DNA from: a virus
Taxonomy: Duplodnaviria; Caudoviricetes
IMG/VR virus record: IMGVR_UViG_3300028591_000180
Coordinates: 1 to 64,000 of that record
Reading direction: 5' to 3' (one strand)
Length of the DNA stretch: 64,000 nt
The notes under the pieces are model-generated. The model ran no database searches and had not been told where the DNA came from. It was given only the letters and a program-made list of their open reading frames with translations. The position numbers and the translations under genes were made by a program. Shown here piece after piece: positions 2,632 to 64,000 of the stretch. How positions within the stretch are numbered: position 1 is the first letter of the stretch; each line of letters starts with the position of its first letter.

Positions 2632-5160
2632 ATGAAGCAAGTAAAAATAAAACCCTCTCAAAATATATATTTGTCAGTAGTTGGTACTACTAATACTCTT
2701 CAAATTGTATTCCCTATTGTAAAGGAGTGGAAGAAATATTATGGCGATGGAGAATTCTCTTTAGCTATCCGGAGACCAGTAGATAAGGAATCATACTTAG
2801 CCCCAATTACTACTGACAATGAAAATATCTATTGGACAGTAACTAGTACTGATACACAATATCCAGGTCCAGGTCAGTATCAGTTAATTTATTATGTTAA
2901 TGGAAATATTGCCAAGACAGTTATAGGTAATACTGTTGTTGATAAATCTTTAGGACAAACTAAATCAGCCCCAGCACCCTGGAGTGACTATATTAAACAA
3001 GTACTTGACGCCAAAGAAAGATATATTGCTACAGAACCTGGAAGTGGAATTATTCTAGATGATTCTTCTGACGGCTGAGTTTATATTAAGGTTGATGATA
3101 CTATAGCTACCAAAGATTATGTCGATGAATTTGGTGGTAAGATAGATTCTATTTCAGTTAATAATGTACTGCATGAACCTGATAGTAATAAAAATGTTAA
3201 TATTAATATTACTGTTAATGATGAGCTTGCTGAAGTAAAAGAAAGCTCAGAATTGGGTAAAGCCGTTAATGTTGATTTGGGCTATAATGTTATTGAAGAC
3301 TTTGAAGAAACAGAACTTGACCTACCGTCATTTACAGTTAATCTAATTGGTAATTATGATGGGTATATCTCAAATTCTGATCCAGATAAAGCTCAAGTAT
3401 GCTGTGAATTCTTTCCAGCAAGTTGACCAGATTTAAAAGAGAATTATCGGATATATCTTGAATTAGGCTTTGAAAAAAAGACTTACAATTTTAAAATAAG
3501 TGACATGGTGTCAGTTAAAAATGAGAGTGATTTTTATAATAGTGATTTCTATAATTATATAAAAGATTCTGTTTTCTCTGATGAATGAGAAGGTTTACCT
3601 TCAAAATTTTTTGATCGACAGGCCATCTATTACAAAGAGCTAGGCGGGTATAAGGATAATCCAATTTATTTTATATTAGGAATAGACGATATACATTTTG
3701 AAGATATTGAACATAGAGTTTGGTGCAGTTTATTTTATACTGAAAATACTGAAGATATTCCCCAGTTCGATGGTGAAGCCATAAATACCAATTATTATGA
3801 AGATTCAGATGGAAATTCTTGAGTCGGCGCTTGGTGGCCCAACCCTGAGAGCTATCTTGATTCCGGGATCTTAGCAGATAGAGAAGCTTTAATAAATTAT
3901 CTTCACTCAGAAGAAAATATTTATATTGATTATTTAGTCCCTACAATAACTGAGGTTGATCCTTCTCAGACTAGAGAAGTTATTATTACATCAGAAAAAT
4001 TTGAAAAAGCAGTAGAGTCACTTATTCCCCCAGTTGGTGATACTGTTGTAGAATTTAAGGTTGATATAACCGCAATACGTGGAGGAGGCGGCGATTGAAC
4101 TACTTTATCAAAAGAATGAGAGATTTATCAGTTATTAAAAGATGCTAAAGAAGCTAGGGCGGTATATAGCCATCCGTTAGATGAGGCATTAGGTGAACCC
4201 GTTGTCGATGATTATTTTAAAATAATATCACTAGAAAAAATTTCTCGCGATGGAAAAAAGACTCTTCCAGTGAATACTGAGGCCGGAATCTTTATTGCCT
4301 TTGAAACAAGGGAAACCGTTCTTATAACTACCTCAGATGGTTATGTCGAGTCTGAAGAAGTTCTTTATTTAAATTATGGAATAGCCTGAGAAAATGGATC
4401 CGGTCGGCTAACTTTTAACCGGTTAAAAATTTCAAATGATATTAATTATATTTACGTAAATGGTGTAAATCAACCAATATTATTTGATGCTTCTCATAAT
4501 AGATATGTAGATATAACAGTACCTACACAAGTATCTCAGTTAATTAATAATTCTGGGTATATTACTAGATCTGTAAATGATTTATTTAATTATTATAATA
4601 GCGCTAAGATTGATAAAGACATCGGACCACTTTATGGATATGGTTATTGTGTAGATCAGTCAACGGCTGATTATAAAGATATTAGAATTAATTTAAATGA
4701 TTTCCCTAATCAGGCAGGAAATTCTCAGTATCTTGAATTCTTATGCTGGTTTGAAAATGGCGCTCCTCGATTTAATCCAATCTCATACACTGAAGAAGAA
4801 TGGGAAAGGAAAGTTACATTTAATATAACATACCTTAATGGAAATTCTCTAGGAACGTGGCCACATGATGGTGTCTACTTAGCTGAATTATATAGGATGC
4901 TGCCTAATGGTAGTTTAAGCGATAATTACATTCAAGTAATGGGAATTCCTAAGGGATTATATAGATGTATACTTGACCCAAACCACCCAAAAATAATTAA
5001 GTTATATGATGTTAGTAGTTTATATAACCTTAGTCTAAATTCTATCTATATGGGCCTGGACCATGAATTTGTTCATGAACAGACTGTTTCTATAAATACA
5101 GAATTAGAATATGTAGAACCGTTCCCAGTGCCGCCTTCAGATGATCCAATTATAGAATAA
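2632..5160 (+). CDS. large tail/baseplate-associated structural protein (842 aa under TGA=Trp)
   Basis: Single frame with no TAA/TAG and 7 in-frame TGA (3076, 3424, 3586, 3820, 4096, 4117, 4387); BppU-like N-terminus; fibre-type motif VPTQVSQLINNSGYIT. Confidence 0.75.
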
Positions 5161-5180
5161 ATGTATAGAGGTGATAATTT

Positions 5181-6329
5181 ATGGCATATATAAAATTTTC
5201 AGTAGATCCAGATTGGATTCCACATTTTAAAAATTGGTTTAATACTCAAAATTACCCTAGTTTAAAGATTAACATTTATGAAAATCAATCTTCATCTGAA
5301 GAGGAGCCATCATATCAATTAATAGATAAATGTTTTACTACAAAAGGTCTAATCGTATATGATACTATAAATCAGATCCCCACAGGAAATATCAGCAGCT
5401 TGAGGGGTGCAGTAGTTGAAAATAAAGACAAAGCTTACGTTGGGTGGAAATTTAATTTGGCCTGAAATGAAATTGGTTTTCTTTTATATCCACTTAACCC
5501 GGTAGAGAGTTCTGAGGGATTAATCGATAGCCCTGATATTTATTTATGGCTTTTGGGTAATTCAAACGGTAAAACTGTCTTCGATAGTATAGATGATCTC
5601 CCGAATCCTCAGTATGATCCAATGATTGATCCACAAAACCTTAAAATAGAAATTGAATTTCCACATAATGAATACGATAAAGAGTTTTTTATAGCTGCTG
5701 ATAAATATCATAGAGATTATCATTATGACTTGGAATATGAAGTATTATTAGATAATTATTTTATTACAGTAGAAGAAAAAACCCGGCTTGCTACTCCTCA
5801 GCAAATAGAATTACCTATTTATAATGATGTAGTCTGAAGTGGGTATGGAAATTTCGCTTATGGAATCGAACCTAGATATCAAAAATATTTCATTATTATT
5901 AATAACTGGGCATTAAATTATCGACGGGCTATATCAGGAGAAAACCCCAGTAGGGCTATTGGAGAATTACAGTTTTCTCGTTTTCCTGATATAAATAGCT
6001 CTAAGGATTTAATGTTTAATTACATTAATTTAGGTGAAGATGGAGTTTTTCTTGATCCAATTACTAGTGATGCCGTTTATATATATCCATACTCTGCAGA
6101 TAGTGGAGATTGAGCCAGAGATTTATATTGTGTAGTTGATGAAAATGATTTTTCAACAGGAACATGTATTTGATCTGTGGATAATGGCACTAGTGAAACT
6201 ACATTACCAAGTTCAACTAATTTAAAGCCCGGTAATTATAGAATATCAGTTATTGGAGTTAATTACAATTCAGAAAGCTTACCTAATTTCTTAATATCTA
6301 GATATAACCCAGAAGATGGTGGGAAGTAG
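5181..6329 (+). CDS. hypothetical, probably structural, protein (382 aa under TGA=Trp)
   Basis: Joins track ORFs 5181 and 5553; in-frame TGA at 5463, 5835, 6111, 6171; ends at TAG 6327-6329 just before a terminator. Confidence 0.75.
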
Positions 6330-6383
6330 TAGTTTACTACTTCTTTTTATTTGTCATATAATATTAATGTAAATAAAAGGTGG
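6323..6383 (+). promoter_or_regulatory. terminator + sigmaA-like early promoter cassette
   Basis: Hairpin GAAGTAGT/ACTACTTC overlapping TTTACT(6333)-N18-TATAAT(6357), then ATTAATGTAAATAAAAGG. Confidence 0.75.
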
Positions 6384-6389
6384 TACTAC

Positions 6390-43762: not shown

Positions 43763-43763
43763 T

Positions 43764-45232: not shown

Positions 45233-45250
45233 TGATTAGGGGAAACGACT

Positions 45251-45733: not shown

Positions 45734-46081
45734 ATGGCTAATTATATAGTTTGAAAGAATCATGTGGTCTCTATGGTCAGAGGAGATTATTTTAATATGA
45801 AAGTTGATCTTCCCGAAGACTTAATTAAAACCGGAAGTAAGCTTTATTTTGCTTTGATGTACCCCAATAAATCTTTTGAAGACGCAATCTTAATTAGAAG
45901 TTATGATATCGACCTATCCAATACAGAAGATTCTGATGTCTTAGTACCCGAAATTATTTTACTGCCTGATGATACTGTTGATTTAGCTCCTGGAACTTAT
46001 TATTATACGGTTAAGATAGAATTACCGGATGAGAAAGTTTATACAATTATCCCAAATACAATATTTAATATAATTAATTAA
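45734..46081 (+). CDS. BppU-N-like baseplate/adaptor domain protein (115 aa under TGA=Trp)
   Basis: ATG 45734 with TGA at 45752 restores an N-terminus comparable to the next paralog (MVRGD / MTRGD). Confidence 0.7.
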
Positions 46082-46095
46082 AGGAGGTTTTCTGT

Positions 46096-46575
46096 ATGGT
46101 AACAATAAAGAATAATAAAATTGTGATGACCAGAGGAGATTCTCTTAATGCAAAAATTGGCATAGTTAGAAATAAATTTACTAAAAGCAAATCGATTGAT
46201 ACTAACCCAACTCCTGATGGTAGAGAATTTTTAACACCTGAAGACCTAGAGGGCTGCAGACTAAGATTTGCTATGAGTGAATTTTATCCAGGTGATTTAA
46301 ATTATAAATTACTTTTAGCTAAGGAATTACCCACTCAAACTATGGCTTTAATATTAAACCCAGAAGATACAAAAACAATTCCACTGGGAATTTATAACTA
46401 TGATGTTAAATTAATTTCTCCGCCTGAATCTCCAGCTGATAGAGAAAAGGTTGATACTTTTATTTCAGGTACAATCCAGCTCTTAGGTGATTGTGAAGGA
46501 GAAGAAAGTTTATTGGATAGCAATTCATTTTCTTTTGATTATGATTATGATTATGATGATTATGACGGTGACTAG
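46096..46575 (+). CDS. BppU-N-like baseplate/adaptor domain protein
   Basis: IVMTRGDS...LNPEDTKTIPLGIYNYDV. Confidence 0.7.
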   Translation: MVTIKNNKIVMTRGDSLNAKIGIVRNKFTKSKSIDTNPTPDGREFLTPEDLEGCRLRFAMSEFYPGDLNYKLLLAKELPTQTMALILNPEDTKTIPLGIYNYDVKLISPPESPADREKVDTFISGTIQLLGDCEGEESLLDSNSFSFDYDYDYDDYDGD

Positions 46576-46587
46576 TGAGGTGAGATT

Positions 46588-47466
46588 ATGGGAATCTCAA
46601 ATAGAATTAATAAGGCTGAATTATCTGGCTTTTTAATTAATGAAAACTTAACTGCCTCAGGAGAACTAGTCAGCGATAACTTAGGTACTGGTGGATTAAT
46701 AACTATAGGTGAAAAAGGAATTGATGGCTATTCACCTATTGTAACAATAGAAGAAGTTGAGACAAGCGAAGGCCTTATCGGACATTCTATTAATATAACT
46801 GATATTGAAAACCCTTTAGTTGGAAAAACATTTTTTGTTTGAAACGGGGTTGGAATATCTGGAGTTACTTTAAACCCAGATTATACATTAACTATTTCCT
46901 TTAATGACGGAACTAGTTATACTACTATTCCTATTCGTGGTGAAACTGGTAATGGTATTGACCAAATCGTAAAAACTTCAACCTCCGGTTTAGTCGATAC
47001 CTATACCATTTATTTTACGGATGGAACTACAACTACTTATCAGGTAACTAACGGTCTAGGTACTCTAGATTATAATGAGTTAGAAAATAAACCATCCATT
47101 AATGGAGTTACTCTTACTGGAAACAAATCAGCTACTGATTTAGGTATTCAAGATAGATTAACTTCAGAAAATGCAGGTGAAGGGATTGATATTACCACAG
47201 ATCAATCCGGTAAAGTAATTATTTCAAATACTAATGTTTCTGCTGAATGAGGAAATATTCAAGGAAACATTACAGATCAAGAAGATTTAATAGATTATAT
47301 AAATCAGCACTCAGGAAGTTATACTGCTGGCAATGGAATTCAAATTGTAAATAAAGTTATTTCTATTAAGGATTTAATTCTTGATTGTGGTACTAGTACT
47401 GGCTGGCCAGGATCTAATGTAGCGATTGTTGGTTCAGCTATAGTTGGAATTAATGTTACAGGGTAA
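46588..47466 (+). CDS. tail fibre-type protein (292 aa under TGA=Trp)
   Basis: TGA at 46840 and 47248; fibre motifs DYNELENKPSINGVTLTGNK and E-W-GNIQGNITDQEDL. Confidence 0.82.
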
Positions 47467-47470
47467 AAAT

Positions 47471-47782
47471 ATGGATACTGTCAATGTTAGAATAAAATTA
47501 AAAAGAGATACTACTGAAAATTGGGCAAAAGTCCAATCTACTTTTATCCCCCTTGAAGGTGAGATGATCATCTACACTGACTTTCGTCATGAAGAATATA
47601 TTGACGGAAATGGTGAATTAAAAACCAGAAATATTCCAGCTTTTAAAGTAGGAACAGGGAATGCTTATTTAGGCGATTTAGCTTTTTCAGTAGTTACTCC
47701 AGAAGAAATTGCTTTTTGGAATAACAAATTAAATCTCATTGATGATATTGAAGATGAGAAATTAATATTCACTAGAAATTAA
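47471..47782 (+). CDS. Mtd-N/hyaluronidase-N-like tail fibre domain protein
   Basis: RIKLKRDTTENW...PLEGE...FKVGTG. Confidence 0.75.
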   Translation: MDTVNVRIKLKRDTTENWAKVQSTFIPLEGEMIIYTDFRHEEYIDGNGELKTRNIPAFKVGTGNAYLGDLAFSVVTPEEIAFWNNKLNLIDDIEDEKLIFTRN

Positions 47783-47800
47783 AGGAGAGAATGATAAAAT

Positions 47801-49129
47801 ATGCCAGAAATTAGTAAAGTGCAATTACCTTCGGGTGGTATATATGATATTAAAGACGCGACAGCCAGAGAAATGATTTCTGGTGGTGTTTCGTTTATCA
47901 TCGCTTGGAATGGCACTTCAACTCCTGTTCCAGGTAATATCCCGGCTGGAGTAAAGGTTGTTTATAATGGTACTACCTATACCGGCACTATGTCAGCTGC
48001 TTCTGCTGAGGTTGGTGCATTTTATTTAGTTAGGTCTTCTACAAGTACTTCAGAAGGTCCTTTAGATGTTTATGACGAATATGTCCCCATTGGCCCTTCA
48101 GGAAGTAAATCATGGGAAAAGATTGGTGATACTCAATTAGATTTATCTGATGTAGTTACTAATGTTTCTTTAAATAAACAAACAGATGTTGTATTAGGAG
48201 AATCTACTACATTTACAAATTCTACTTCAGCTGTTACTTTTTCAGGCGGTACAAATGATGTAGCTCTAGGTGAAAATACAACATTTGCTTTAACAAGTGG
48301 GGCTGTAACTCACGGTAGCTTATCTGGCCATACTGATACCGTTTTAGGAACAGGAACAACTTTTTCAGTTACAGATCCTACAATTACTGTCACTCCAGCT
48401 CAGACTTATTTAGGTGCTAGTGCTAGTGGAACTGCTGTTGGAGCTGATGGTACTGCTACTGTCGTAACTGGATATGCTTCCCCCACAACTGATACCTTTG
48501 TTAAATCTGTAAGTGCTGAAACAAATAAAAACTTAGTTACAACAACTGTTCCTAATGTTACTGATCCTGGAAGTGCTTCAACCTGGACTTTCACCATGGG
48601 AACTGGAGATGCAGCAGAAACTTTAATTATTGGTGGAGCTAATAGTGTTGCTCCTCAGATGGGAACTGCCATTACTGTTGCTACAGGTTCTACTTCAACA
48701 ACAGGTACAGGAGATGCTGTTGTAACTGGTGTAACAATTGGATCAAGTGCTGCAGCTATCACTGGTCTTGGTACTGCAAGCACAGAAACTGTCTTGACTG
48801 GTGTAAAAGTTACTGCACAGCCTACCATTTCATTATCTTCAAATGCTTCTACGGCTACTGGAAGAGTTCAGGTAGCTACTGGTATTTCAAGTGCTTCTGC
48901 TTCCGGTGGAGCTGTTTCCGCTAGTGGTGATAATGTTACGGCCATTGTAAGTATGCCTACAAGTACAGTTGGTACAGACATTACTGTTGGTACAAATGAT
49001 AAAGTAACTGCAATTACAAATATTGGAACAGGTACTGCAGCTGCTCAAACAATTACTGTTGGTACAAATGATAAGGTTACTTCATTAACTAATGATACTT
49101 CATTGATTGTTACAAAGGGTAATAATTAG
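47801..49129 (+). CDS. Thr/Gly/Ser/Val-rich tail fibre protein
   Basis: 442 aa; ISKVQLPSG..YDIKD start and beta-repeat composition. Confidence 0.75.
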   Translation: MPEISKVQLPSGGIYDIKDATAREMISGGVSFIIAWNGTSTPVPGNIPAGVKVVYNGTTYTGTMSAASAEVGAFYLVRSSTSTSEGPLDVYDEYVPIGPSGSKSWEKIGDTQLDLSDVVTNVSLNKQTDVVLGESTTFTNSTSAVTFSGGTNDVALGENTTFALTSGAVTHGSLSGHTDTVLGTGTTFSVTDPTITVTPAQTYLGASASGTAVGADGTATVVTGYASPTTDTFVKSVSAETNKNLVTTTVPNVTDPGSASTWTFTMGTGDAAETLIIGGANSVAPQMGTAITVATGSTSTTGTGDAVVTGVTIGSSAAAITGLGTASTETVLTGVKVTAQPTISLSSNASTATGRVQVATGISSASASGGAVSASGDNVTAIVSMPTSTVGTDITVGTNDKVTAITNIGTGTAAAQTITVGTNDKVTSLTNDTSLIVTKGNN

Positions 49130-49141
49130 GAGGAATAGAAT

Positions 49142-49525
49142 ATGAGCTATGTAAAAAATACTTGGGCTACGGGTGATGTAGTTACCGCCGACAAACTTAA
49201 TCATATCGAGGACGGCATTGCTAGTGCAGGAGGTATTCTGCCAATCGGTGTAACCATTGATACAGATCCTATCACATCATCAACCGTACAAACATTAGAC
49301 CATACCTGGCAGGAGATTTATAATGCGGCACAAAATAAAGTGTATCCAGTAGTGTTTAAATTAGTTGGTGGTGACATAAAATTGCTTCCGGTGGCAGCTA
49401 CTTATGGTAACGATAGAGATGGGTATACCGTAGTCGTTACTGATCCTTTAGATAATGACTTTATTATAAGTTACCAGTGTACGGAGGCTGATGAATATCC
49501 GCGCTACATCGCAGGCGGTAAATAG
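49142..49525 (+). CDS. tail-associated protein
   Basis: MSYVKNTWATGDVVTADKLNHIEDGI motif of phage tail proteins. Confidence 0.7.
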   Translation: MSYVKNTWATGDVVTADKLNHIEDGIASAGGILPIGVTIDTDPITSSTVQTLDHTWQEIYNAAQNKVYPVVFKLVGGDIKLLPVAATYGNDRDGYTVVVTDPLDNDFIISYQCTEADEYPRYIAGGK

Positions 49526-49617
49526 AAAGTACCCTAGTTAAGTCGAGAGTGTAGAATACCGTTATAAATATATCAAAAAATGAATTTAATTAATAAAAGA
49601 AAGAGGAGTGAGTTATT

Positions 49618-50793
49618 ATGGTACCAAATCCATCAAGTTTAGTTGGTATTGGAACAGTAGGATCTATGCTAGCTGGTGGTAATATATCAAAAGTACAATT
49701 ACCAGATGGAATTACCTATGCCATCAAAGATAGCGTTACTCCTTCTTTAACTCAAAGTGAAATAGACGCAGGAACTGATACCAGTAATAAGTTTATTTCT
49801 GCAAAAGTATTGAGTGAAGTAATAGCTGCAGCTGGAGCCAATGACGGAGCTTTAAAATTACAAAAAGATTCTGACAGTGCTACTTCTATTTTTACAGCTA
49901 ACCAAAGTACTGATACAACTTTAACTTATACTACTTCAACTGTTGGAAGTGCTAGTAATTGAAATCCTGGAACAACACCTACTTTAGGAAGTTCAATCTC
50001 CGCTGATGATATTACTTCATGGAGTACAAATACTCCAACTTCAATTGATACCACAAAGTTCAACGGGGGATCATTTACTAGAGGTACATTCAATGGTGGG
50101 TCATTTACCCAGGGAACTGATACTTTTACTACAAATAAACCTACTGTTATTGATGTTACTAAATTTAATGGTGGAAGCTATATTTCGGCTACGTATTCTT
50201 GGTCGACTAATACTCCAACTTCAATTGATACAACTAAATTTAATGGTGGATCATTTACCCGTGGTACATTTAGTGGAGGAAGTTTTACTCAGGGTACCGA
50301 TAATTTTACTGCTGCAACCTTAGTACCTAGCTTGGCTAGTACGGCAGCAACAGCTTCAACTCCTACTACTTTGACACTTACTTTTACTGGTGGAAGTTTT
50401 ACTCAGGGATCTGATTCATTTACTGCAGCTACTCATGCTAATGATACTTTTACAGCTGCTTCATTATCAAATGGTTTCTACACTGCTGGATCTGCAGCAA
50501 GCTGGGCTGTTGCAACTAACCCATCATTTACTCCAGCTTCATTATCAAATGGTTTCTATTCCGCTGGGTCATCAGCAAGCTTTACCCAGGGTACTGATAG
50601 TTTTACTGCTGCAACTCACGCCAATGATACCTTTACAGCTGCAAGCTTGTTAAGTGGATTCTATACAGCAGGAAGTGCTGCTTCATTAAGTTATACTTCA
50701 AGAAGTATTCCAAATGTTACTAGTACAGGAACAGCTCCATCATTAACAATTACAAGTAATGTCACTGTTCTTACAGGACTTAGTGCTTCATAG
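49618..50793 (+). CDS. repetitive tail fibre protein (391 aa under TGA=Trp)
   Basis: TGA 49960 joins to track ORF 50332; repeats TNTPTSIDTTKFNGGSFT and FTQGTDSFTAATHANDTF. Confidence 0.8.
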
Positions 50794-50806
50794 GGGAGTT
50801 GATTAA

Positions 50807-51346
50807 ATGGCTAATACAAATACTTATATTAATAAAATAGTAGTACCAAATGGGTCTGACACGATTACAGCAAATTTAGTTGACACTGTTAGTGGGTATA
50901 CTAAAAATACAGGTACTGTAACTAGTGTTCAAGTTCAGGGCACAAATCCAATTGTCTCTAGTCAATCTACGGCACAAACTGGGACATTAAGTACTACAAT
51001 CTCACATGCTGACTCTGGAGTAACTGCTGGTACTTATGGTAGTTCATCATTAATTCCCGTAATAACGGTAGACTCTAAAGGACATTTAACAAGTGTAACA
51101 ACTAGTTCAGCTTCTGGCGGAGTAAATGATGTACAAGTAAATGGAACGTCTGTTGTATCATCTGGAACTGCAAATATTGTTACTAATACTGCATATAATG
51201 CTAGTACAAATAAGATCGCAACAATGGCAGATGTAGATGTAGTAACAATTACATATACGGTAATTTCAGGTACTGACTATGAAATGACTATTTCAACAGT
51301 CTTAGCCCCGAACTACGCTCAAACTATTTTAGAGGAGGCCTATTAA
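50807..51346 (+). CDS. tail fibre protein
   Basis: SGVTAGTYGSSSLIPVITVDSKGH and VNDVQVNGTSVV motifs. Confidence 0.75.
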   Translation: MANTNTYINKIVVPNGSDTITANLVDTVSGYTKNTGTVTSVQVQGTNPIVSSQSTAQTGTLSTTISHADSGVTAGTYGSSSLIPVITVDSKGHLTSVTTSSASGGVNDVQVNGTSVVSSGTANIVTNTAYNASTNKIATMADVDVVTITYTVISGTDYEMTISTVLAPNYAQTILEEAY

Positions 51347-51349
51347 AAT

Positions 51350-51976
51350 ATGCCCTTAAAACATGAGACAATAACTGATTTATTCACTGATATTGCTGAT
51401 GCCATTAGAGAAAAAACTGATAGCAACGAGCCAATTGTAGCAGATGATTTTCCTGATTCTATATTGAGTATTGAACAACCTTTACCTTTATATCTTACTA
51501 AAGTAAAAGATTTAATAAATACTACAGTTACTATTGATACAGAATTATCTGCTAATGCGACAATAGCAACTTATAACTTAGATCCTGTTCTTCAAAAGTC
51601 TTATTCTGCAACAGAAAATTTTGTAGTTATTTCTTATGTTATTTGGGTTGGGGATTATTCAGGGACCAAAACTTCTGGGCAATGTGTGTCTTCTGTTTCT
51701 TTTATTCCTGTTATAAGAGCTTATGGATCAACTTATTATGCTACTCCGGGATCAGGCACTGGTTGCACAGCTTGGATGTCTAACTGGTCATATTGTTCAA
51801 CAGGATCACAAGTAACGGGACTTAGAATAGTTCATGGTAGTAGTGATGCTACTAATTTACAGCTAAAGTTAACTTTTTATAAAGTTAATCCTTGTAACTT
51901 TGTAGTTGCTGGTGATTATCTTGTAAAGGCAGTTTTGTATAAGTATGATATTTTATCATTAGGAGGTAGTTTATAA
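51350..51976 (+). CDS. tail fibre/receptor-binding-type protein
   Basis: LFTDIADAIREKT start shared in style with 53323, 57483 and 58635. Confidence 0.7.
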   Translation: MPLKHETITDLFTDIADAIREKTDSNEPIVADDFPDSILSIEQPLPLYLTKVKDLINTTVTIDTELSANATIATYNLDPVLQKSYSATENFVVISYVIWVGDYSGTKTSGQCVSSVSFIPVIRAYGSTYYATPGSGTGCTAWMSNWSYCSTGSQVTGLRIVHGSSDATNLQLKLTFYKVNPCNFVVAGDYLVKAVLYKYDILSLGGSL

Positions 51977-52152
51977 TGGTTTATTATTATAAATTAGATA
52001 CTAGTGGGTATGTAAAATCAATTTTTAAATTGAAAGGTAATTGTACAGAAATAACCGAAGAAGAATATTATTCTCATGTAAATGAAGAAAGTGATGATGA
52101 GCCTACTCCTGAAGAATTAATTGAAGCTGGTAAAATAATGCTAGGTTTATAA
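51976..52152 (+). CDS. small tail fibre assembly-like protein (58 aa)
   Basis: EITEEEY...ELIEAGKIMLG; not in the ORF track. Confidence 0.55.
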   Translation: MVYYYKLDTSGYVKSIFKLKGNCTEITEEEYYSHVNEESDDEPTPEELIEAGKIMLGL

Positions 52153-52194
52153 GTAATGTATAATATATCATAAGTTTTGTAAAGGAGATTTTCT

Positions 52195-52437
52195 ATGCCA
52201 GTTGTAATAGAATACCAAGGTGATTTAGTTCATCATTATTCAAGCACAGGGTTTAAGATCAGAAATACTACTACAGGTGGTATTTATGATGATGCCTGGG
52301 ATTTAATTTCTAATGGTTATGATTATGAAGAAACCGAAGAGAAGATAGATCAAGATGAAGAAGAGCAGCAACAGAGTGAGTTAGAAGAATATGCTGAGGC
52401 CGGAAGGATTTTATTAGGAGAAGAGAATAATGAGTAA
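52195..52437 (+). CDS. small tail-associated protein
   Basis: YSSTGFKIR..TTG..YDDA.D...Y.Y.ETEE...AGRILLGE. Confidence 0.7.
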   Translation: MPVVIEYQGDLVHHYSSTGFKIRNTTTGGIYDDAWDLISNGYDYEETEEKIDQDEEEQQQSELEEYAEAGRILLGEENNE

Positions 52438-52825
52438 GATTATTGATAAAGCAAAATACTTAAGGGCTAAGATTGAAGAATTAGCCGAAACATTAACTGA
52501 TGAAGTAGCCTTACAATACGTCTCCTTATTTAAAGATTGAGCAACTGATACCAGTTATTTAGTTGACGATAGAGTAAAATATAATGATGTTCTTTACAAA
52601 TGTGTTCAGGCTCATACTTCTCAAGATAGCTGGACACCAGATCTAACTCCAGCCTTATGGGTAGTAGTTTCTATTGAAGAGTGGCCTGAGTGGGTACAGC
52701 CAATAGGTGCTCAAGATGCTTATATGACTGGAGATAAAGTTACTCACAATGAAAAGCATTGGATCTCTACGGCAGATAATAATGTCTGAGAGCCTGGAGT
52801 ATACGGGTGGGAAGAAGTAGACTAA
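52430..52825 (+). CDS. CBM5/12 (chitin-binding-like) carbohydrate-binding protein (131 aa under TGA=Trp)
   Basis: LFKD-W...LYKCVQAHTSQDSWTPD...EWVQP...NNV-W-EPGVYGW; TGA at 52538 and 52787 at conserved Trp sites; absent from the ORF track. Confidence 0.88.
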
Positions 52826-52974
52826 TGAGTAAATATAATATAACAAAAAAAGAATTAGCTGAATACATTATGGCTAATAGAACTGAAGATTTTCCTTTAG
52901 ACCAGAAGTTGGAAGATTTTTATAAAAAAGTAAGAGAATGGTGTGATTTAAATGCCGACTATAAGCAAGATTAA
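52825..52974 (+). CDS. hypothetical protein (49 aa)
   Basis: Coupled start/stop overlaps on both sides. Confidence 0.5.
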   Translation: MSKYNITKKELAEYIMANRTEDFPLDQKLEDFYKKVREWCDLNADYKQD

Positions 52975-53323
52975 TGGTTATGATCTTAAAGACAGAGTAA
53001 GTGGCTATACTACCAATGAGGGTACAATAACTGGAGTATCTGTTGCTGGTACTTCAGTAGCTACTAGTGGTGTAGCTAATATACCTGCGGCTACAACTAA
53101 TTCTGCAGGAGTTATGTCTTCTTCTGATAAAACCAAATTAGAGGGTATTGCAGCTGGAGCTGAAGTAAATGTTCAATCGGATTGAAATATTACAGATAGT
53201 ACATCCGATGCCTTTATCAAAAATAAACCTCAGATTTCTAATACCTCTATTACAGCTAATGCTACTAATAAAACTTTATTTATTGATACAGATATTGTTG
53301 ATGGAGATGCGGTGAGTTACTAA
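52952..53323 (+). CDS. tail fibre-type protein (123 aa under TGA=Trp)
   Basis: DKTKLEGIAAGAEVNVQSD-W-NITDSTSDAFIKNKP with TGA at 53183. Confidence 0.85.
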
Positions 53324-54852
53324 TGTCAATTGTTATTACAGATCCTATAAATTATACGCATATAGCTAATTCCATTCGTAATAAGAATGGGTTATCAACT
53401 GTTTACAAGCCATCAGAAATGTCTTTGGCGATTGATGCCCTTAATGTAGGTGGAGTAATTAGTCTGCAGGATAAGTCAGTAACTCCTACTACTTCAACTC
53501 AATTAATTTCTAAGGACAGTGGGTATGATGGCCTGGGAATAGTTACAGTTAATGCTATTCCAAGTGCTTATATTATTCCATCAGGTACTTTTAACATTAC
53601 TGCAAATAACACTTATGACATTACAAGTTATGCCAGTGTTTTTGTAAATGTGTCTGGTGGAGGTGGATCTCCAACAATATCTTCACTGTCAGTTACTCCT
53701 ACAGAATCTGCTCAGACTTTTAACGCTTCAGGTGTTGATGGTTATAAACCAGTTACTGTTGCGGGAATTAGCTCAACTTATGTAGGTACTGGAATTCCCA
53801 GGAAATCAAGTGCAGATCTTACGGCTAGTGGTTCAACCATTACAGTTGTTTCTGGTTATTATTCAGCTCAAGCTACAAAGAATGTTAGTGCAGGAACTGC
53901 TGGTACACCGACTGCCACAAAAGGGACTGTTTCAAATCACAGTATTTCTATAACTCCAAAGGTTACAAATACAGCAGGTTATATTTCAGGTAGTACCATT
54001 ACCGGTACAGCCGTTACTGTAAGTGCAAGTGAGTTAGTAAGTGGGACATTATCTATTACTGCTAATGGTACTGGAATCAATGTTACTAATTATGCAAGTG
54101 TTGATGTAGCTATCCCAGGTGATAATCCAACGATATCATCATTGGCTATTACCCCAACGGAAAGTGAACAAACATTTAATAGCTCTTCTGTTGATGGCTA
54201 TAAACCAGTTACGGTGTCAGCCATTAGCTCTACTTACGTAGGCACTGGAATTACTCGTAGAAGTTCATCTGATTTAACAGCTTCAGGTGCTACTGTAACT
54301 GTACCATCTGGATATTATTCTAGCCAGGCTACTAAAGCAGTATCAAACGGAACTGCTACAGCTCCAGCTTCTATTTCAGGAACTAGCGCTACGGTGAGTA
54401 CAGGAACAAATACTTTAACTTTAACAAAAACTGTAAGCGTAACTCCATCAGTAACTGCTGGTTACATAAGTAGTGGTACAGCTGGAAATGCTTCAGTATC
54501 TCTTACTGCTAGTGTTACAACGCAGGGAACTAGGACTATAACTCCAACTACTAGTAATCAAACTATTTCTTCAGGTACCTATATTACGGGTACTCAAACA
54601 ATATCAGGCGATGCCAATCTTGTTGCTGGAAATATTAAATCAGGTACAAGTATCTTTGGGGTGACTGGTTCTTATTCAGGGCTTGATACCTCAGATGCTA
54701 CTGCAGCAGCTACTGATATTGTTAGTGGTAAAACTGCCTATGTAGATGGGAGAAAGGTAGAAGGTTCATTAGTTATTCAGAAATACTATACCGGTTCTTC
54801 TGCCCCATCAAGTTCTTTAGGTACCAATGGAGACATATATTTCCAGAGCTAG
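53323..54852 (+). CDS. tail fibre protein with an internal ~75-aa duplication
   Basis: LQDKSVTPT..Q...DSGYDGL motif; PTISSL..TPTES...DGYKPVTV occurs twice. Confidence 0.78.
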   Translation: MSIVITDPINYTHIANSIRNKNGLSTVYKPSEMSLAIDALNVGGVISLQDKSVTPTTSTQLISKDSGYDGLGIVTVNAIPSAYIIPSGTFNITANNTYDITSYASVFVNVSGGGGSPTISSLSVTPTESAQTFNASGVDGYKPVTVAGISSTYVGTGIPRKSSADLTASGSTITVVSGYYSAQATKNVSAGTAGTPTATKGTVSNHSISITPKVTNTAGYISGSTITGTAVTVSASELVSGTLSITANGTGINVTNYASVDVAIPGDNPTISSLAITPTESEQTFNSSSVDGYKPVTVSAISSTYVGTGITRRSSSDLTASGATVTVPSGYYSSQATKAVSNGTATAPASISGTSATVSTGTNTLTLTKTVSVTPSVTAGYISSGTAGNASVSLTASVTTQGTRTITPTTSNQTISSGTYITGTQTISGDANLVAGNIKSGTSIFGVTGSYSGLDTSDATAAATDIVSGKTAYVDGRKVEGSLVIQKYYTGSSAPSSSLGTNGDIYFQS

Positions 54853-54863
54853 GAGGTTAATTA

Positions 54864-57269
54864 ATGGCAAATATTAGATTAATTCCTAGTGCTTATACCT
54901 CAAGCCATTCTAGCTACGCCTCTGTATATAGTGGTGAAGCTAATATGTATAATAACACCGACCATACTGCTAATTATGCTTCTTTAAGAGGTAGAAATAG
55001 TAATACTACTACTGCTTATTATATTTTCCTTAGAGGGTTTAACTTTGATGATGTTCCTGCTAATGCATCAGTAACAAGCTTTGAAGTAAAAATAAGATGT
55101 TATAGAAACTCTTATCAAAGAACGGGCGATAACTATAGGCTAAGATTGTCTAGTAGTACAAGTATTAATGATGTTATTTCTGACTCAATAACAAGTACAG
55201 AAATTGGTACTACATCTAGTGTTATTACTATTCCTACTGGCAACTTAACTTGGAGTACTTTAAAGAGTTATGGCGATGACTTCTCTATTGTAATTCCATT
55301 ATCATCGACTGCAAGTAACAGGCCTTATATTTATGTATATGGTGCTGAAATAAATGTTACTTATTCAACTTTACCTACTTATGAAGTTACGGCTACCTCT
55401 AATGTTACTGGAGTTGAAGTAAGCCCATCAACACAGACTATTACTCAGGGTGATTCTGCTACCATTTACATTGATACCTCTGATATTAGTGAATATATTT
55501 TAAAAGATAATGGTACAGATGTTACTTCTAGTGTTGTATACCATCATGAGGAAGGTGGATCAACTACAGAAGATACTGTATTAGGTACTTATACTTTAGT
55601 TAGTGGTTCATTTAATGGCTCTGGCGCTTCCCATTTTAGTGGATTAGTTGGTAAAGGACATACATCTTCAACTACTACTTCTAACTATTATTCAGGTGGT
55701 TCTGGTACCATCGCAGTATTTACTTATGATGTATCATTTAACAACATCCCTGAAAATGCTACTATTGAAAGTTGTTATGCCCTAGTAAATGGACATGCAG
55801 AATCTACTTCACAATCTGCTGAATATATGTGTGCCCAGATTAGATCAGGAAGCACAGAATTATCAGAAGAATTAAATTTTAAATCGGTTGGTACTTCTAA
55901 TAGTACACAAACAATTACTTGTACCACACCACCAACTATCGAACAGCTAGGAAATCTTCAGTTATATTGTAGATTAGGTTACTATGGCGGTGCTCTTAAT
56001 GGTGCTACTGTATATGTAGAATATAGTACACCTTCAGGGTATTATTACACTTATACGATAACTAATGTAGTAGCTGCTCATACTGTTGTATTGGATGAAT
56101 CTACTGGCCCTTACGTACCTGATCCAGAAGACCCTACTAAAACTTATTATTCATTAACTATCTCAAGTATTAATGCTGGTACTAGTATTAATGGAGAATT
56201 AGTAAATGGAACTGTTAGAGTAGAAGCTGGATCAAATGAAACTATAGTAATTTCTCCATCAGATCCTATATTAACATTGGCTTTAGATAATGGCGTTGAC
56301 ATCACAAGCCAATTAATTGGAAGCGTTCCTGTAAATACTTATACAGTTACTACTCAAGTTAGTGGAGCTTCCTATGGATTTACTTTAAATTCTTCTACTG
56401 GATATTATGTGTCTACAAATAATGGTGTTTCCAAATCAGCTTCAGTAGCGAGATTGAATCTTGATTTTGAATCTGATTGTTTAGTAACAATTCAATACAT
56501 TAATTATGCAGAAGAAAATTATGACTATGGATTATTCGGTAAATTAGATACTACTGTGGCTACTGATGGTTTGACTGCTGGATCAGGCGGCAGCTCTCCC
56601 AGTGACAGTACTAGTAATTATCAACTGGCTAAATGCTCAAATAGTACTTCACCTCAGACTATCACTTATAATGTCCCAGCTGGTACTCATTATATTGATA
56701 TTAAGTACGGCAAAGATGATGCCTCAAACTCTGGAGATGATAGCCTCCAGTGGAAAGTATTAAGCATTGAGCCTACTAGTGCTGGTGGAGATTATACCTA
56801 TATTTTAAATAATATTTCACAGAAACATAGTTTAATTTTTGTTTTTGGTAATGTTTCATATTATTTTGTAACTTCTACAATAGGTAGTACAGGTAGAGCA
56901 TTCCCTGATGGTCAACAGGTAGTTTTGGCTGGAGACCCATACACTATAAATATAGTTCCTAACAATTATCAAGATACAGTTACTTTAACTGATAATGGGG
57001 TCAATGTTACTTCACAGATGGAAGTAGCTACAGGACAAGATAAACAAGGGAATCCTATTACTAGTTATAGATATAAACTATTAAATGTACAAGCATCTCA
57101 TACTTTAGTTATTTCTATTGGTGGTGTTACTGCTAAATTATATATAAAGGTAAATAACTCCTGGGTTCAATATTCTAAAGTTTTTAAAAAGATAAATAAC
57201 TCTTGAGTTGAACAGTCAGATCCATCTTCAGTTTTAGATGTAACTGTTAATTACGTGAAAGCTAATTAG
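54864..57269 (+). CDS. large beta-rich tail/adhesin-like protein (801 aa under TGA=Trp)
   Basis: KVNNSWVQ (TGG) is followed by KINNS-W-VEQ (TGA 57204); ends TAG 57267-57269. Confidence 0.8.
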
Positions 57270-57283
57270 GGAGGAATTAAAAG

Positions 57284-57472
57284 ATGCCAGATCCTAATGT
57301 ATTAGAAAAAATAAATTTAGATAACACTGAATATTTAATTAAAGATGGCGCTACAGAAACATTAACCGTAGCTGAAATTACAACCGGAACAGATACTGAG
57401 AGTAAATTTGTTACTGCTAAAGTTATTCATGATTATATTGATTCTTTAGATGCTACTAATACCTTATATTAG
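57284..57472 (+). CDS. small tail protein
   Basis: LTVAEITTGTDTESKFVTAKV resembles the motif in 49618. Confidence 0.65.
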   Translation: MPDPNVLEKINLDNTEYLIKDGATETLTVAEITTGTDTESKFVTAKVIHDYIDSLDATNTLY

Positions 57473-57482
57473 GGAGTAAAGT

Positions 57483-58616
57483 ATGGGATTAAAATTATAT
57501 CCAGAAACTGCAGTTATTAATCTTGCCAATGCAATTAGGTCAGCTTATGGTGGTATTAGTACTTCATATAGAGTATCTGACATGGCTTCGGCTATTTTAA
57601 ATATCCCCGCAGGTGAGGATAACTTTAGCGTTCTAGCCTCAGTAGTAGATGGCACAATCACTGAATTTTCATATAGTAATCAAGCAATTTCAGTGATTAC
57701 TTCTTGAACTTTTTATGACTGCAGACTTCTTGAAAGAGTAGACTGTCCATCAATTACTGAAATACAAGATCAAGCTTTTCAGAGTTGTTATTCATTATCA
57801 TCAATTAGTTTTCCTCTTTGTTCTTATATTGGAAGCTATGCTTTTGCCTTTTGTAGTAATTTAACTGCAGCCTGTTTTCCTTCATGTGTTTCAATATCTA
57901 CGGCTGCATTTACTAATTGCAATAAAATATCATCACTAAGTTTTCCTCTGTGTACTATTATTGGATCTAATGCTTTTTATGCTATTGGTTCAGGAGTTAA
58001 GTCTATAACTAGTGAGGTATTCCCTATTTGTACTACTATTGGATCTGCGGCTTTTTACCTATGCCATGGTCTATCCTATGTTTATTTTCCTGAAGTTACT
58101 CAAATGCTAGGTAATACTTTTGGTGGTTGTAGTAGTTTGTCTACTGCCGTATTTCCTTTATGCACTAAGATTGATGACTCCTTTAGAGGCTGCAGCCATT
58201 TAACTTCTGTTAGTCTTCCTCTCTGTGAAATAGTTGGCTATCAAGCTTTTTATTATTGTTCTTATAGACTATCATCTATTAGTTTACCAGCTTGTTATTC
58301 AATTGGGTCTAATGCCTTTGCTGAAGCTTATAGGTTAAGTATAATTGATTTAGGGAGTAATAATCTATCAGTAAATAGTGGAGTAATCGGCGCTAGCGCT
58401 TTTAGGTCTTGTCGTAGTTTATTATCACTTTATCTTAGATATTCCTTTACTATTTCTTTGTCAAACATTAACGCTTTTACATCAACTCCAATTTCAAATT
58501 ATACAGCTTCAACTAGTGGAGTATATGGATCAATATATGTACCCTCTTCACTCTATGACACTTATATAACTGCTACTAATTGAGCTACATATTCCTCAAG
58601 ATTTGTAAGTATTTAG
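57483..58616 (+). CDS. BspA-type LRR protein 1, putative receptor-binding (377 aa under TGA=Trp)
   Basis: FP.C..IG..AF..C repeats; TGA at 57705 and 58581. Confidence 0.85.
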
Positions 58617-58634
58617 TTTAGGAGATAATTATTT

Positions 58635-60116
58635 ATGGGATTAAAATTATATTCAGAAGAAGATATACAAGAGATTGCTAATGCCATAAGATTAAAAAGG
58701 GGTAGTACATCTGCTTATTCAATTTCTGAGATGGCTAGCCAATTGAGTGATTTACACGGTACAGATTATATTTATTCTTATTTTACTAAAACTTTACAAA
58801 CTTTAAATTTTAGTGATATTAGTTATATTAAGCATTATTTCTTTTTTAATCAAACATCACTACTAAAGTTAAGTGCTCCAAATTGTTTAAGTATTGGAAG
58901 CAGTGCTTTTTATTCTTGTACAGCTTTATCTGAGATTTATTCTCCCAGCGTCTCATCAATAGGCTCTTACGCCTTTTATTCTTGCTCAAATTTAGTTTCA
59001 GCTAATTTTCCTCTTTGCACTTCAATAGGTTGATATACCTTTCAGGGATGTTATAACCTGGTCTCGGCTAACATGCCTTCTTTATCAGTTTCTCTTCCAC
59101 AATACGCTTTTGCCTATTGCAGTTCTTTGGCTGCGGCAGATTTCCCTCTTTGCAGTATTGTTGAACGTGGGGCTTTCATGTATTGTACAGCTTTATCTAG
59201 TATTAATTTTCCTATTTGCTCTAGTGTTGGTAGTTCCACTTTTTTAAGGTGTAGCTCTTTAACTACAGCAGATTTCTCCTCCTGTATTAATATTGGGGGA
59301 AATGCGTTTCAATATTGTATTGGTTTAGTTTCAATTAGTTTCCCTATTTGCACTACAATAGGTCCTTATGCTTTTTTGGGGTGTAGCTCTTTAACTACAG
59401 CAAATTTCCCTTCTTGTACTTCAATGAGCATGTCTGCTTTTATGAGTTGTTACAACTTAAGAGAAGCTAATTTTCCTGTATGTACTACTATTAAAGAGTC
59501 AACCTTTTGCAGGTGTTCTTCACTATCATCAATTAGTTTTCCTCTTTGTTCTTATATTGGAAGCTATGCTTTTGCTTATTGCAGTGCCTTGACTGAGGTA
59601 GATTTCTCACTTTGTACTATCTTATATAATGGAGCATTTGAATATTGTTATAGTTTAATTCAAGTTAGTTTCCCTATTTGTACTACTCTTCGGCAAAATA
59701 CTTTTATGGCCTGTTCTAAATTATCTGAGGCTAATTTCCCGTCTTGTACCTCTATATATGGTGGAGCTTTTAGCGGTTGTTGAAGCCTAGACTCAGTAAG
59801 TTTTCCGATCTGTATTTATGTGGGTAGTTCAGCCTTCCAATACTGTTCAAGCCTATCTATTATTAGTTTTCCTTCTTGTAGTATTATCTATTCTAGTGCT
59901 TTTTATAGATGTTTTAATTTATTATCTTTATATTTAATGGGTAGTAGTGTTTGTACATTATCAAATGTGAATGCTTTTACGTCAACTCCGATTTCAAACT
60001 ACACAACTTCAACTGGCGGAGTACATGGTTCAATCTATGTACCAGCTTCGCTTTACGATACTTATATAGCTTCTACTAATTGGGCTACTTATTCTGCAAG
60101 ATTTGTAAGTGTTTAA
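58635..60116 (+). CDS. BspA-type LRR protein 2, putative receptor-binding (493 aa under TGA=Trp)
   Basis: Three track ORFs in one frame joined by TGA 59031 and 59781; paralog of 57483. Confidence 0.85.
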
Positions 60117-61159: not shown

Positions 61160-62284
61160 ATGTCAGCTAAAAAAATTATTTATTTTAGAATGCCATTAGT
61201 TAATACTGGCATCACGACTTATTACTCCACCAAGCATAGAGCTATTGATATGGGATGGAATAAGAATTATGGTGGGAAGACAGCTCCTGTTTATTCAATT
61301 AGCCGTGCTGTAGTATCAAGAATTTATAAGACTACTACAGGTGGAAATATTCTGGAATTAAGACATAATGAAGGCGAGACTACCTGGATTCAGCAGTTTA
61401 AACACCTTTCCAAGGTTGGTGTTAAGGTAAATCAGAAAGTTAATATGGGTGAGCATATTGCTAATATGGGTTCTACTGGTACTGCTGCTACTGGACCACA
61501 TTTACATTATGCCTTATATAAATGTCCATTAGGTACTATGGTACCACAGACTAAGTGGGCAGTAAATCCTCTTGAATATACTTACGCCTATGATGATCAG
61601 GTAGTACAGGCAAAGAGTGCTAGTAAGGTAAAGAGAGTTTATGGTGTTCCTTATTGCTTTGCTGGAAATGTCCCGTTTGAGAATGATTCAACTGTTGATT
61701 CAGTAGAAGTTCTGGGTGACATGAATTGCCGTGACGCTGCTAAGGGAAAGGTTTTAGGAGAGTGTGTAAATGGCTTCTTTAAGTTTACTGATAAAGCTAA
61801 GAAAGGTGATTATACCTGGTATAAGATTGGCGACAACCGTTGGGTAGCCAATGTAAATGGAAAGGTAGAAGTAATTCCTGCTGGTTCAGCCAAGCTTGCT
61901 GCTCAGTCTGTATACGATGATGGCGATAATTCCCTAATCATTCCGGATGATCAGATTGGTATCGACTACGATGTTGAAGAAATTGATAATGCTGATCCAA
62001 ACGAAGAGATTGAAGATTTTGAAGTTGATAATGGTGAAGTAGAAATTGTTGGATTCCACTTCTCAGATCATGCCTACGAAGTAGCAAAATACATTGCTAT
62101 GATCGTGTTACCAGCTGTTGCTACTTTATATTCAACTTTATCTTCAATTTGGAATTTCCCATTCCAGGATGAGATCCCAGCTACTGTAATGGCCATCGAT
62201 TTATTCATGGGTGCCTTACTTAAGATTTCAAGTGATAATTATTACAAGAGTCTAGAAAAGGCTTCTATGGCTAAGAAAGGCTAG
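61160..62284 (+). CDS. M23 peptidase endolysin + SH3-like domain fused to a C-terminal Dp-1-like holin
   Basis: HRAIDMG, FKHL, STGTAATGPHLHY; YTWYKIGDNRWVA; acidic linker; YEVAKYIAMIVLPAVATLYSTLSSIWNFP...AIDLFMGALLKISSDNY. Confidence 0.8.
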   Translation: MSAKKIIYFRMPLVNTGITTYYSTKHRAIDMGWNKNYGGKTAPVYSISRAVVSRIYKTTTGGNILELRHNEGETTWIQQFKHLSKVGVKVNQKVNMGEHIANMGSTGTAATGPHLHYALYKCPLGTMVPQTKWAVNPLEYTYAYDDQVVQAKSASKVKRVYGVPYCFAGNVPFENDSTVDSVEVLGDMNCRDAAKGKVLGECVNGFFKFTDKAKKGDYTWYKIGDNRWVANVNGKVEVIPAGSAKLAAQSVYDDGDNSLIIPDDQIGIDYDVEEIDNADPNEEIEDFEVDNGEVEIVGFHFSDHAYEVAKYIAMIVLPAVATLYSTLSSIWNFPFQDEIPATVMAIDLFMGALLKISSDNYYKSLEKASMAKKG

Positions 62285-62332: not shown

Positions 62333-62350
62333 TTTGCTAAATTTATATAT
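62333..62350 (+). promoter_or_regulatory. putative late promoter, copy 5
   Basis: TTTGCTAAATTTATATAT. Confidence 0.55.
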
Positions 62351-62365
62351 AATAGGAGGTTTTGT

Positions 62366-63202
62366 ATGTCTGAAGAAAATAATGAATTCGGATTTGGTTG
62401 TTTACCTGGAAAGATAGACTTAAGAGATTATAAAATTAAACGAGAGGTAGCTATGGCTTATAATTACCCTGAGACTTTTTCTTTAGAGCATCCTCCAGTA
62501 AAAAACCAAGGAGCTGTAGGATCTTGTGTAGCTCATGCTACATCTGAGATTCTTGAGTCTCATTTAAAAGAATATAAGAAATTATCTACAAATTTTTTGT
62601 ATGGCATTCATTATAAATTATTTGGTAGCAAGGGCCCTGGGATGTATTTACGAGAGGCCTGTAAGATAGCTAAAGATTATGGTGACCCAGAAGAAATTTT
62701 TTGTAAAGGAAATACTGAAGTTCCACATGTTTATTCAATGGCTGAGAATTCTTTTAAGGATCCATCCGTTTTAGAAAATGCTAATAAGTATAAAATTAAT
62801 AGCTATGTTAAACTTAGGACAGAAAATGATATTAAATATTCATTAATGTATCATGGGCCAGTATTAATCAGTGTTGAATGATTTTCTGATTATGAGTTTA
62901 AATACTCAACTGGGATTTTATCTCCTGGTGTAAAAAGTGCTGGGCTGCATTGTATTATGATTTATGGGTGAAATGAAGATGGTTGGTTATGCCAGAATTC
63001 ATGGGGAGAGCTCTGAGGTAAAAACGGTTGTTTTGTTCTTCCTTATACTTATGAAATCAATGAGGCTTATGCCTTAATTTCTGATCCTTCTAGAGACGAT
63101 ATAAATAAAGTTAAAAGGTGTAAGCTTTTAGATTTTATGTATAAAATATTAAATAATTTAATAAATTGGTTTGTTGATGTATTTAGGTGACTTAAGAAAT
63201 AA
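62366..63202 (+). CDS. papain-like C1 cysteine peptidase (278 aa under TGA=Trp)
   Basis: NQGAVGSCVAHA; HCIMIYG-W-NEDGWLCQNSWGEL-W-GKNG; TGA at 62879, 62969, 63014, 63188. Confidence 0.9.
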
Positions 63203-63858
63203 TGAAAATTTGTGTTGGGATAATAAGCTACTTACCTGATGGTGAGAGTATCAGGTTTCAGAGGTTTAAAAAATTAATTAATTTACTCTCAAGAATAGAT
63301 AAGGTTTTTAAGTTGCCTATTTTAATAATAGCTCAAAACTGAAAAGATTGTGAAATACCAGTGCTACAGAATTCTTTATTAATTATTTATAGCTACGACG
63401 AAGGTCTAGGAATTACTGGGGCAAGAAGAGCCCTTCGAGATAAATTTATTAATTCTGAGTTTGATTATTTAATAATGTTAGATGACGACTCTGAATTGAT
63501 TGGTGATGAAAGAGATGGGATGGAATACTTATCTCAGATCTATTCTCACCCAAACATGTATGGTGTTTTTAAAAGTATGTTGCTGAAGCTTTTTGCTATC
63601 TCAAAAGAAATGTATAAGAAAATAGATTTTCCAAAGGGAGAAGCTGCCAATGGTGATTTTTTCGAAGACATGTATTTAATTATGGCTTTAGAAAAATTAT
63701 ACCCATCAAAGAAATTTACTTTTAAAAGAAATGGAATAAATGAGTATTCTAATTCAGCTAATGATTCGTTATCTACCTGATATCATAAGCAGTTTGTTAA
63801 AAGGAAGATAGGCGATAATACTAGAGAAATGATAAGGAAATTAAAGCATGTCAACTAA
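63202..63858 (+). CDS. putative glycosyltransferase (GT-A fold; 218 aa under TGA=Trp)
   Basis: ATG 63202; TGA at 63340 and 63778; GITGARRALR and YLIMLDDD motifs. Confidence 0.7.
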
Positions 63859-64000
63859 ATGTATCGGAATAATAAGTTATCTACCAGATGATCCAGAATT
63901 AAGAGAAATTAGGAAATCTAGATTATTATCACTATTAAAACAATGTGATGATTGATTTAAGATTCCTATTATTATTGTAGCTCAGAATTGAGGCCAGGAT
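63848..64000 (+). CDS. paralog of 63202 (3'-truncated by window edge)
   Basis: CIGIISYLPD...IIVAQN-W matches the preceding gene; TGA at 63953 and 63989. Confidence 0.7.

Follow-up and report, generated by a model that had tools for sequence, protein, structure and literature searches.

Phage clades in which TGA is reassigned to tryptophan, with predicted hosts among standard-code Firmicutes or Bacteroidetes, have been described from human and animal guts (Borges et al., bioRxiv 10.1101/2021.08.26.457843), the recoded codons residing in structural and lysis genes, the replication genes being written in the standard code, and TGA being rare as a stop. Among the code-4 genomes, just 35% yielded a suppressor tRNA, RF1 and tryptophanyl-tRNA synthetase (TrpRS) are encoded by two Jade phages, the Agate clade (~127-154 kb) is found in cattle, and in phages matched to TGA-reassigned hosts ~90% of genes possess an in-frame TGA (bioRxiv 10.1101/2021.08.26.457843). 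Here we describe a phage with in-frame TGA codons at Trp positions, represented by a stretch of 64,000 nucleotides (hereafter, the window) that comprises positions 1-64000 of the 74,504-bp linear IMG/VR record IMGVR_UViG_3300028591_000180 (contig G000), and compare it with two syntenic relatives, IMGVR_UViG_3300026549_000043 (G001; 139,874 bp, 83% complete) and JAFRFD010000012.1 (G023:C119, hereafter C119; 151,219 bp).

In each feature examined, this phage matches the description by Borges et al., and the phenomenon is already published; the earlier note on this DNA had thus overrated its novelty, as TGA-recoded gut phages of standard-code hosts were known. The likeness to the Agate clade, which is defined on a large-terminase tree and is compared here by its published description, extends to the large genome (~127-154 kb versus ~150 kb here), the ruminant gut, TGA recoding outside the standard-coded replication genes, the rarity of TGA as a stop and a predicted standard-code host; some Agate members also possess a suppressor tRNA(UCA), which here is found in relatives. 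The differences are that an M23-holin fusion and an LL-H-type holin are not recoded here, and that the cumulative GC skew, for which a bidirectional pattern is described in Agate, climbs steadily over the window, with no sign of such a pattern. The Jade phages are similar in reading TGA as Trp in lysis-region genes and in being predicted to infect Firmicutes, but they differ in encoding RF1 and TrpRS beside the suppressor tRNA, neither of which is found on the contig, in five related records or on C119. Phages of code-4 Mollicutes and of the code-25 Absconditabacteria and Gracilibacteria likewise use in-frame TGA as an amino acid, but these match the code of the host, with ~90% of code-25 phage genes possessing TGA, as opposed to 24% here and none among the early genes, and unlike in the code-25 phages, TGA here aligns to Trp, not to Gly.

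According to a plus-strand map of open reading frames (ORFs) under code 4, 20 genes between positions 2632 and 64000 contain 42 in-frame TGAs in total, exactly the count of the earlier note, the last two (63953 and 63989) falling in the third gene of the papain-family series (Table 1), which has two of its three TGAs inside the window and extends past the window end. The sites that had been quoted as examples all proved to be TGA in the peptide context given for them, including YG-W-NEDG (62969) and GEL-W-GKNG (63014) in the papain-family peptidase, NNV-W-EPG (52787), VQSD-W-N (53183) and AE-W-GNIQG (47248), and in the leucine-rich repeat (LRR) paralogs the Trp of TNWATY is indeed specified by TGA at 58581 and by TGG at 60081; both stop/start overlaps, 27279/27272 and 37734/37724, are likewise confirmed. 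Plus-strand coverage of the contig, open-ended frames included, rises from 85.8% under code 11 to 95.8% under code 4, in a comparison that had been suggested along with the original claim, while a control with TAG as sense reaches only 86.6%, and the TGA pattern is therefore beyond chance. All of the genes called under code 4 end in either TAA (66) or TAG (35), and two TGAs in early genes, at 7596 and 11038, could either be stops or be followed by two further codons, both options giving overlaps normal for this gene array. When all sense TGAs of the contig, G001 and C119 are considered, the following base is G in 41%, A in 35%, T in 19% and C in 5% of cases, which differs (p = 0.003) from the 33%, 31%, 24% and 12%, respectively, that are found after TGG; T and C are somewhat rarer after a sense TGA than after TGG, and T is commonest after true stops. 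As to artefacts, five of the TGAs (52787, 53183, 57204, 57705, and 59781) are unchanged, with no differing letters, in contigs from an RNA library of another study, which excludes misassembly and RNA editing at these five sites, although DNA can be present in a library of this kind.

The reading of TGA as Trp, as judged from alignments, is strongly supported. In ortholog pairs of at least 40% identity, to which these counts are limited, the TGAs of the contig are aligned in G001 with TGG-encoded Trp in 9 cases, with TGA in 9 and with other residues in 3, and in C119 with TGG-encoded Trp in 11 cases, with TGA in 5 and with other residues in 5, no Gly, Ser or Cys being found opposite any of them in either relative, and the substitution spectrum of the TGA positions is the same as that of TGG codons. 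Conversely, the TGAs of G001 are matched in the contig by TGA (8) or by TGG-encoded Trp (5). One example is presented by the nucleoside-salvage genes, in which the sense TGAs of the deoxyribosyltransferase (27166 and 27214) and of the permease (27623) are all three opposite TGG in G001, the PnrA/Bmp-like protein having none. Another is presented by TGA 36306, which is common to G001, and by TGAs 35725 and 37600, which are opposite TGG in that relative, and several of the TGAs in the block at 42317-60116 are opposite TGG or TGA in the relatives. Conserved Trp positions of protein families lead to the same reading: TGA 27623 corresponds to permease W118, a residue with 90% or higher conservation across 40 homologues, the most distant at 43% identity, and TGAs 62969 and 63014 are aligned to Trp of solved C1 peptidases, the latter within the NSWG..WG motif. 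These alignments and conserved sites therefore uphold the Trp assignment made in the earlier note and rule out Gly (code 25), selenocysteine and pseudogenes, neither Gly nor Sec, the residues that had been named as telling against Trp, being indicated at the aligned positions. Nor is the pattern that of selenoproteins, with no TGA opposite Cys and up to 8 TGAs per gene, SECIS (selenocysteine insertion sequence) elements not having been specifically searched. Ser is opposite TGA in only two cases, both of them in the CHAP pair, at 29% identity.

The recoding is compartmentalised, being confined to some gene classes, with the early/replication genes free of it. In NrdD and the genes at 6351-26587 there are 0 sense TGAs versus 122 TGGs, and in the other genes 48 versus 133 (Fisher p = 1.2e-12); overall, 24% of genes carry TGA, which makes up ~16% of all Trp codons. 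Heavy recoding is seen in the papain-like peptidase and the genes next to it, and also in the CHAP protein. A 3.7-kb insertion (2632-6329), directly downstream of NrdD, is made up of the two orphan genes, with their 11 TGAs and with no ortholog in G001 or C119; the first of these (2632-5160; 7 TGAs), whose sole known homologue is 97% identical, holds a VPTQVSQLINNSGYIT stretch of a kind typical of phage tail fibres. Given their absence from both relatives and this presumed tail-fibre-like stretch, the orphan genes have the appearance of a late-type insertion.

If the host used TGA for Trp in its own genes, as a code-4 Mollicute does, no switch of the code would be needed, and the low GC content (33%) and the salvage genes (deoxyribosyltransferase, permease, PnrA/Bmp), which would suit a salvage-dependent host, are in line with this possibility. 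However, none of the 122 Trp codons in the early block are TGA, and TGA, at the shares given above, is neither the main Trp codon nor present in all gene classes, as opposed to the ~90% of genes with in-frame TGA that Borges et al. observed in phages matched to TGA-reassigned hosts. The M23 and CHAP domains and two holins indicate a host with a peptidoglycan wall, while Mollicutes are wall-less, the relatives carry a tRNA(UCA) of their own, and RF2 is encoded in the small Bacilli genomes that hold the nearest cellular relatives of the permease. A code-4 host is thus very unlikely.

Instead, the host is probably a walled, standard-code bacterium of the low-GC Bacillota. The lysis genes are of the Gram-positive kind (M23, CHAP, a Dp-1 holin domain and an LL-H-type holin), and C119 encodes an initiator tRNA of the bacterial type, with a C1xA72 mismatch and a GGG/CCC anticodon stem; these, along with the TGA-free early genes, the low share of recoded genes (24%) and the phage tRNA(UCA) of the relatives, speak indirectly for the standard-code, walled host proposed in the earlier note. 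An archaeal host is rejected, as C119 encodes the initiator tRNA just described. C119 is filed in a public genome bin labeled 'Methanobrevibacter sp.', which possesses mcrA and no PBP (penicillin-binding protein) transpeptidase; the same bin contains a stray bacterial contig, C133, of 35% GC, encoding RF2 and using TGA as a stop, and the label is therefore no evidence of the host but a binning artefact. Among cellular proteins, the permease is closest, at 41-42% identity, to homologues from these small RF2-encoding Bacilli genomes. The M23 domain is matched mostly in Staphylococcus, Arthrobacter and Streptomyces phages, at ~33% identity over one third of the protein, which may be a weak hint at a Gram-positive host, and an Atlas search with the M23-holin protein returned mixed phyla. 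Cultured relatives yield no host, because none is close: the topoisomerase II is at most 33% identical to those in the GenBank phage collection, and neither megablast, with 24 kb, nor tblastn, with the unannotated 442-aa protein at 47801-49129 and the CHAP protein, found a match in that collection.

As to the decoder, a tRNA(UCA) gene is present in each of the two close relatives. In C119 this is a 97-nt tRNA at 65403-65499, one of 29 tRNAs at 65.4-72.1 kb, and in G001 a 98-nt tRNA at 47366-47463, located 3 nt upstream of tRNA-Trp(CCA) and missed by default ARAGORN and by the Rfam tRNA model. The search for tRNA-Trp(UCA), RF1 and TrpRS that the earlier note had recommended was thus positive for the tRNA in these relatives and negative on the contig; the five related phage records and C119 likewise yielded neither an RF-1 domain nor TrpRS. 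As position 115 of the contig is matched at 58.7 kb in G001 and at 83.8 kb in C119, a homologous tRNA block is expected ~10-18 kb beyond the 5' end of the contig. A covariance model built from the G001 and C119 copies found the same tRNA type in four further relatives (G004, G014, G019, and G022). In a more distant member of the family, G013, ARAGORN recognizes a tRNA with a CUA anticodon near L094 978-1054, which could be an amber suppressor, and TAG could be recoded in the wider family.

Decoding with no dedicated phage tRNA, through a leaky tRNA-Trp(CCA) of the host or of the phage, or through inactivation of the host RF2, would be compatible with the contig lacking a tRNA(UCA), with the U11-A24 pair in the D stem of the relatives' tRNA-Trp(CCA), and with the detection of suppressor tRNAs by Borges et al. 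in just 35% of code-4 phage genomes. Nevertheless, we consider it highly improbable, as both close relatives encode the tRNA(UCA), in a tRNA block upstream of the point at which the contig starts, and as one copy escaped the default finders, which could explain some of the low published detection.

The tRNA(UCA) family, as represented in six relatives, is 95-98 nt in length, with an invariant A1-U72 pair, discriminator G73 and an anticodon loop CUUCAAA, and compensatory changes are seen in 22 of 28 pairs. The variable region forms an extra hairpin in which all of the 7 pairs covary, while pairings slid by 1-3 columns are only 37-47% paired, and the loop of this hairpin contains UCCAA in all six sequences, resembling the anticodon loop of tRNA-Trp. 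Three of the six have the same D arm as the phages' own tRNA-Trp(CCA), which points to the tRNA(UCA) being a derivative of tRNA-Trp. A long variable arm and G73 are also features used by SerRS and by tRNA-Sec. Together with the label SeC that ARAGORN assigns to these tRNAs and a D arm that is Sec-like and tight in three relatives, they would fit TGA being read as Gly (code 25), as Ser via the long-armed tRNA, or as Sec or Cys. We regard any of these as extremely unlikely, since at 40% identity and above the TGAs face Trp encoded by TGG 20 times and never Gly, Ser or Cys, since they occupy invariant Trp positions of the permease and of the C1 peptidases, and since the tRNA retains A1-U72, G73 and the anticodon-loop context of tRNA-Trp, with the tRNA-Trp D arm in three relatives. 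We suggest, only tentatively, that the code switch of this lineage may rest on this single unusual tRNA-Trp(UCA), as seen in the six relatives, with no RF1 or TrpRS involved, and that the UCCAA hairpin, as a copy of the normal Trp anticodon loop, could act as a handle through which the host TrpRS continues to charge a tRNA with an altered anticodon.

Overall, we are fairly confident in an explanation that combines a standard-code, walled host, the use of UGA as Trp in a subset of genes, and a suppressor tRNA encoded upstream. According to this explanation, the early/replication genes would be kept in the standard code so that the host machinery translates them on arrival, while the tail-like, surface and lysis-associated genes, and some of the nucleoside-salvage genes, with in-frame TGA at Trp positions, would be completed only after a phage-encoded opal-suppressor tRNA-Trp(UCA) has accumulated, its gene being expected off the contig, by synteny ~10-18 kb before the first position of the latter. 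What we infer is when the switch takes place, that the host uses the standard code, that the tRNA is charged with Trp and that the missing half holds its gene; the switch during infection, as put forward in the earlier note, is backed by the tRNA(UCA) of both close relatives and agrees with the published model. A number of observations weigh against this explanation. No tRNA is found on the contig, even with relaxed settings or with the purpose-built covariance model, and neither are an RF-1 domain or TrpRS, and because of this the decoder has to be deduced from the relatives. Neither the M23-holin fusion nor the LL-H-type holin is recoded, the former being a single uninterrupted ORF with 6 TGGs, in contrast to its heavily recoded downstream neighbours, and lysis therefore would not be uniformly gated by recoding. 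The recoded deoxyribosyltransferase and permease are placed among early-looking genes. A spacer-type search with 20 kb of the window against 400 Bacilli genomes produced chance-level matches only, the best of 37 nt and outside any repeat array. The pattern, finally, has been read at the level of genes and alignments.

The remaining features are listed in Table 1. The contig is 49% complete according to CheckV, which implies a whole genome of ~150 kb with the window in its right-hand part, nearly all of its genes are on the plus strand, and its sequence is present in sheep-gut metagenomes and metatranscriptome libraries from several studies. The block at 42317-60116 may be a late one, judging from its position and domain types. 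A glycosyltransferase is also recognizable among the genes of the contig, no terminase was identified on it, and a Rfam scan of the whole contig matched no family. The frame that is open at the contig end has 40 TGGs and neither TAA nor TAG, abounds in Ser/Thr repeats of a 'YLYKR...GW...IP...PC' type, and probably encodes a giant protein of the fibre or surface kind. The salvage trio is kept in G001 and partly in C119, and the permease is common to dozens of phage contigs of 115-180 kb, several of them from the close relatives' own metagenomes. Genes for a T4-type portal, a prohead protease and Gp23 are present on an ENA contig whose permease is 93% identical, and because of this the lineage looks like a large T4-like myovirus.

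Table 1. Features of contig G000 and further tRNA(UCA) copies in relatives; positions are those of the contig unless a locus is named.
Feature	Position	Strand	Evidence and TGA content
NrdD, anaerobic ribonucleotide reductase	555-2558	+	Pfam NRDD 6.8e-84, PHROG match; 0 TGA, 10 TGG
Two orphan genes, 842 and 382 aa	2632-6329	+	11 sense TGAs; no Pfam or PHROG match
Early/replication block, ~40 genes	6351-26587	+	PHROGs: topoisomerase II subunits, DUF6267-nucleotidyltransferase fusion; no sense TGA
Nucleoside-salvage trio	26629-29774	+	Pfam: deoxyribosyltransferase, xanthine/uracil-family permease, PnrA/Bmp-like binding protein
RecA recombinase, bacterial-type	30061-31083	+	Pfam RecA 2.4e-102; no TGA
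Unknown 1073-aa and 407-aa proteins, MoxR-type AAA ATPase, small peptidase-like protein	31573-37734	+	7 sense TGAs in total
Stand-alone LL-H-type holin	41980-42315	+	Pfam Phage_holin_6_1 9.9e-18, PHROG holin 9.9e-21; no TGA
Mostly unannotated block	42317-60116	+	13 sense TGAs; includes the CBM5/12 protein and the BspA-type LRR paralogs
CBM5/12 protein	52430-52825	+	
BspA-type LRR paralogs	57483-58616 and 58635-60116	+	
M23 peptidase fused to Dp-1-type holin domain	61160-62284	+	Pfam Peptidase_M23 2.8e-16, Phage_holin_Dp1 9.9e-18; no TGA
Papain-family peptidase, then two paralogous unknown genes	62366-64000	+	Pfam Peptidase_C1; 4, 2 and 3 TGAs
CHAP-domain protein	65210-66628 (beyond the window)	+	5 TGAs
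Giant repeat protein, 2,622 codons or more, open at the contig end	66637-74504 (beyond the window)	+	8 TGAs
Further tRNA(UCA) copies	loci L087, L088, L089 and L090, each 1501-1598		

The general principle of such recoding having been published, the value of the window is confirmatory, and what is to some degree new lies only in the long-armed tRNA(UCA), found in relatives and outside the window. As one relative has TGA and another TGG at the same Trp positions, the lineage presents a well-controlled example of recoding. At the level of annotation, code-11 gene callers would break 20 genes of the window, and a 151-kb TGA-recoded phage filed in a Methanobrevibacter bin could mislead analyses of host or gene content. 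As the long-armed tRNA(UCA) can be missed by default finders, it could explain part of the low detection of suppressor tRNAs in code-4 phages. If the role proposed for the UCCAA hairpin is true, and if the missing half of the genome carries this tRNA, the lineage would present a natural example of a synthetase identity element moved off the anticodon.

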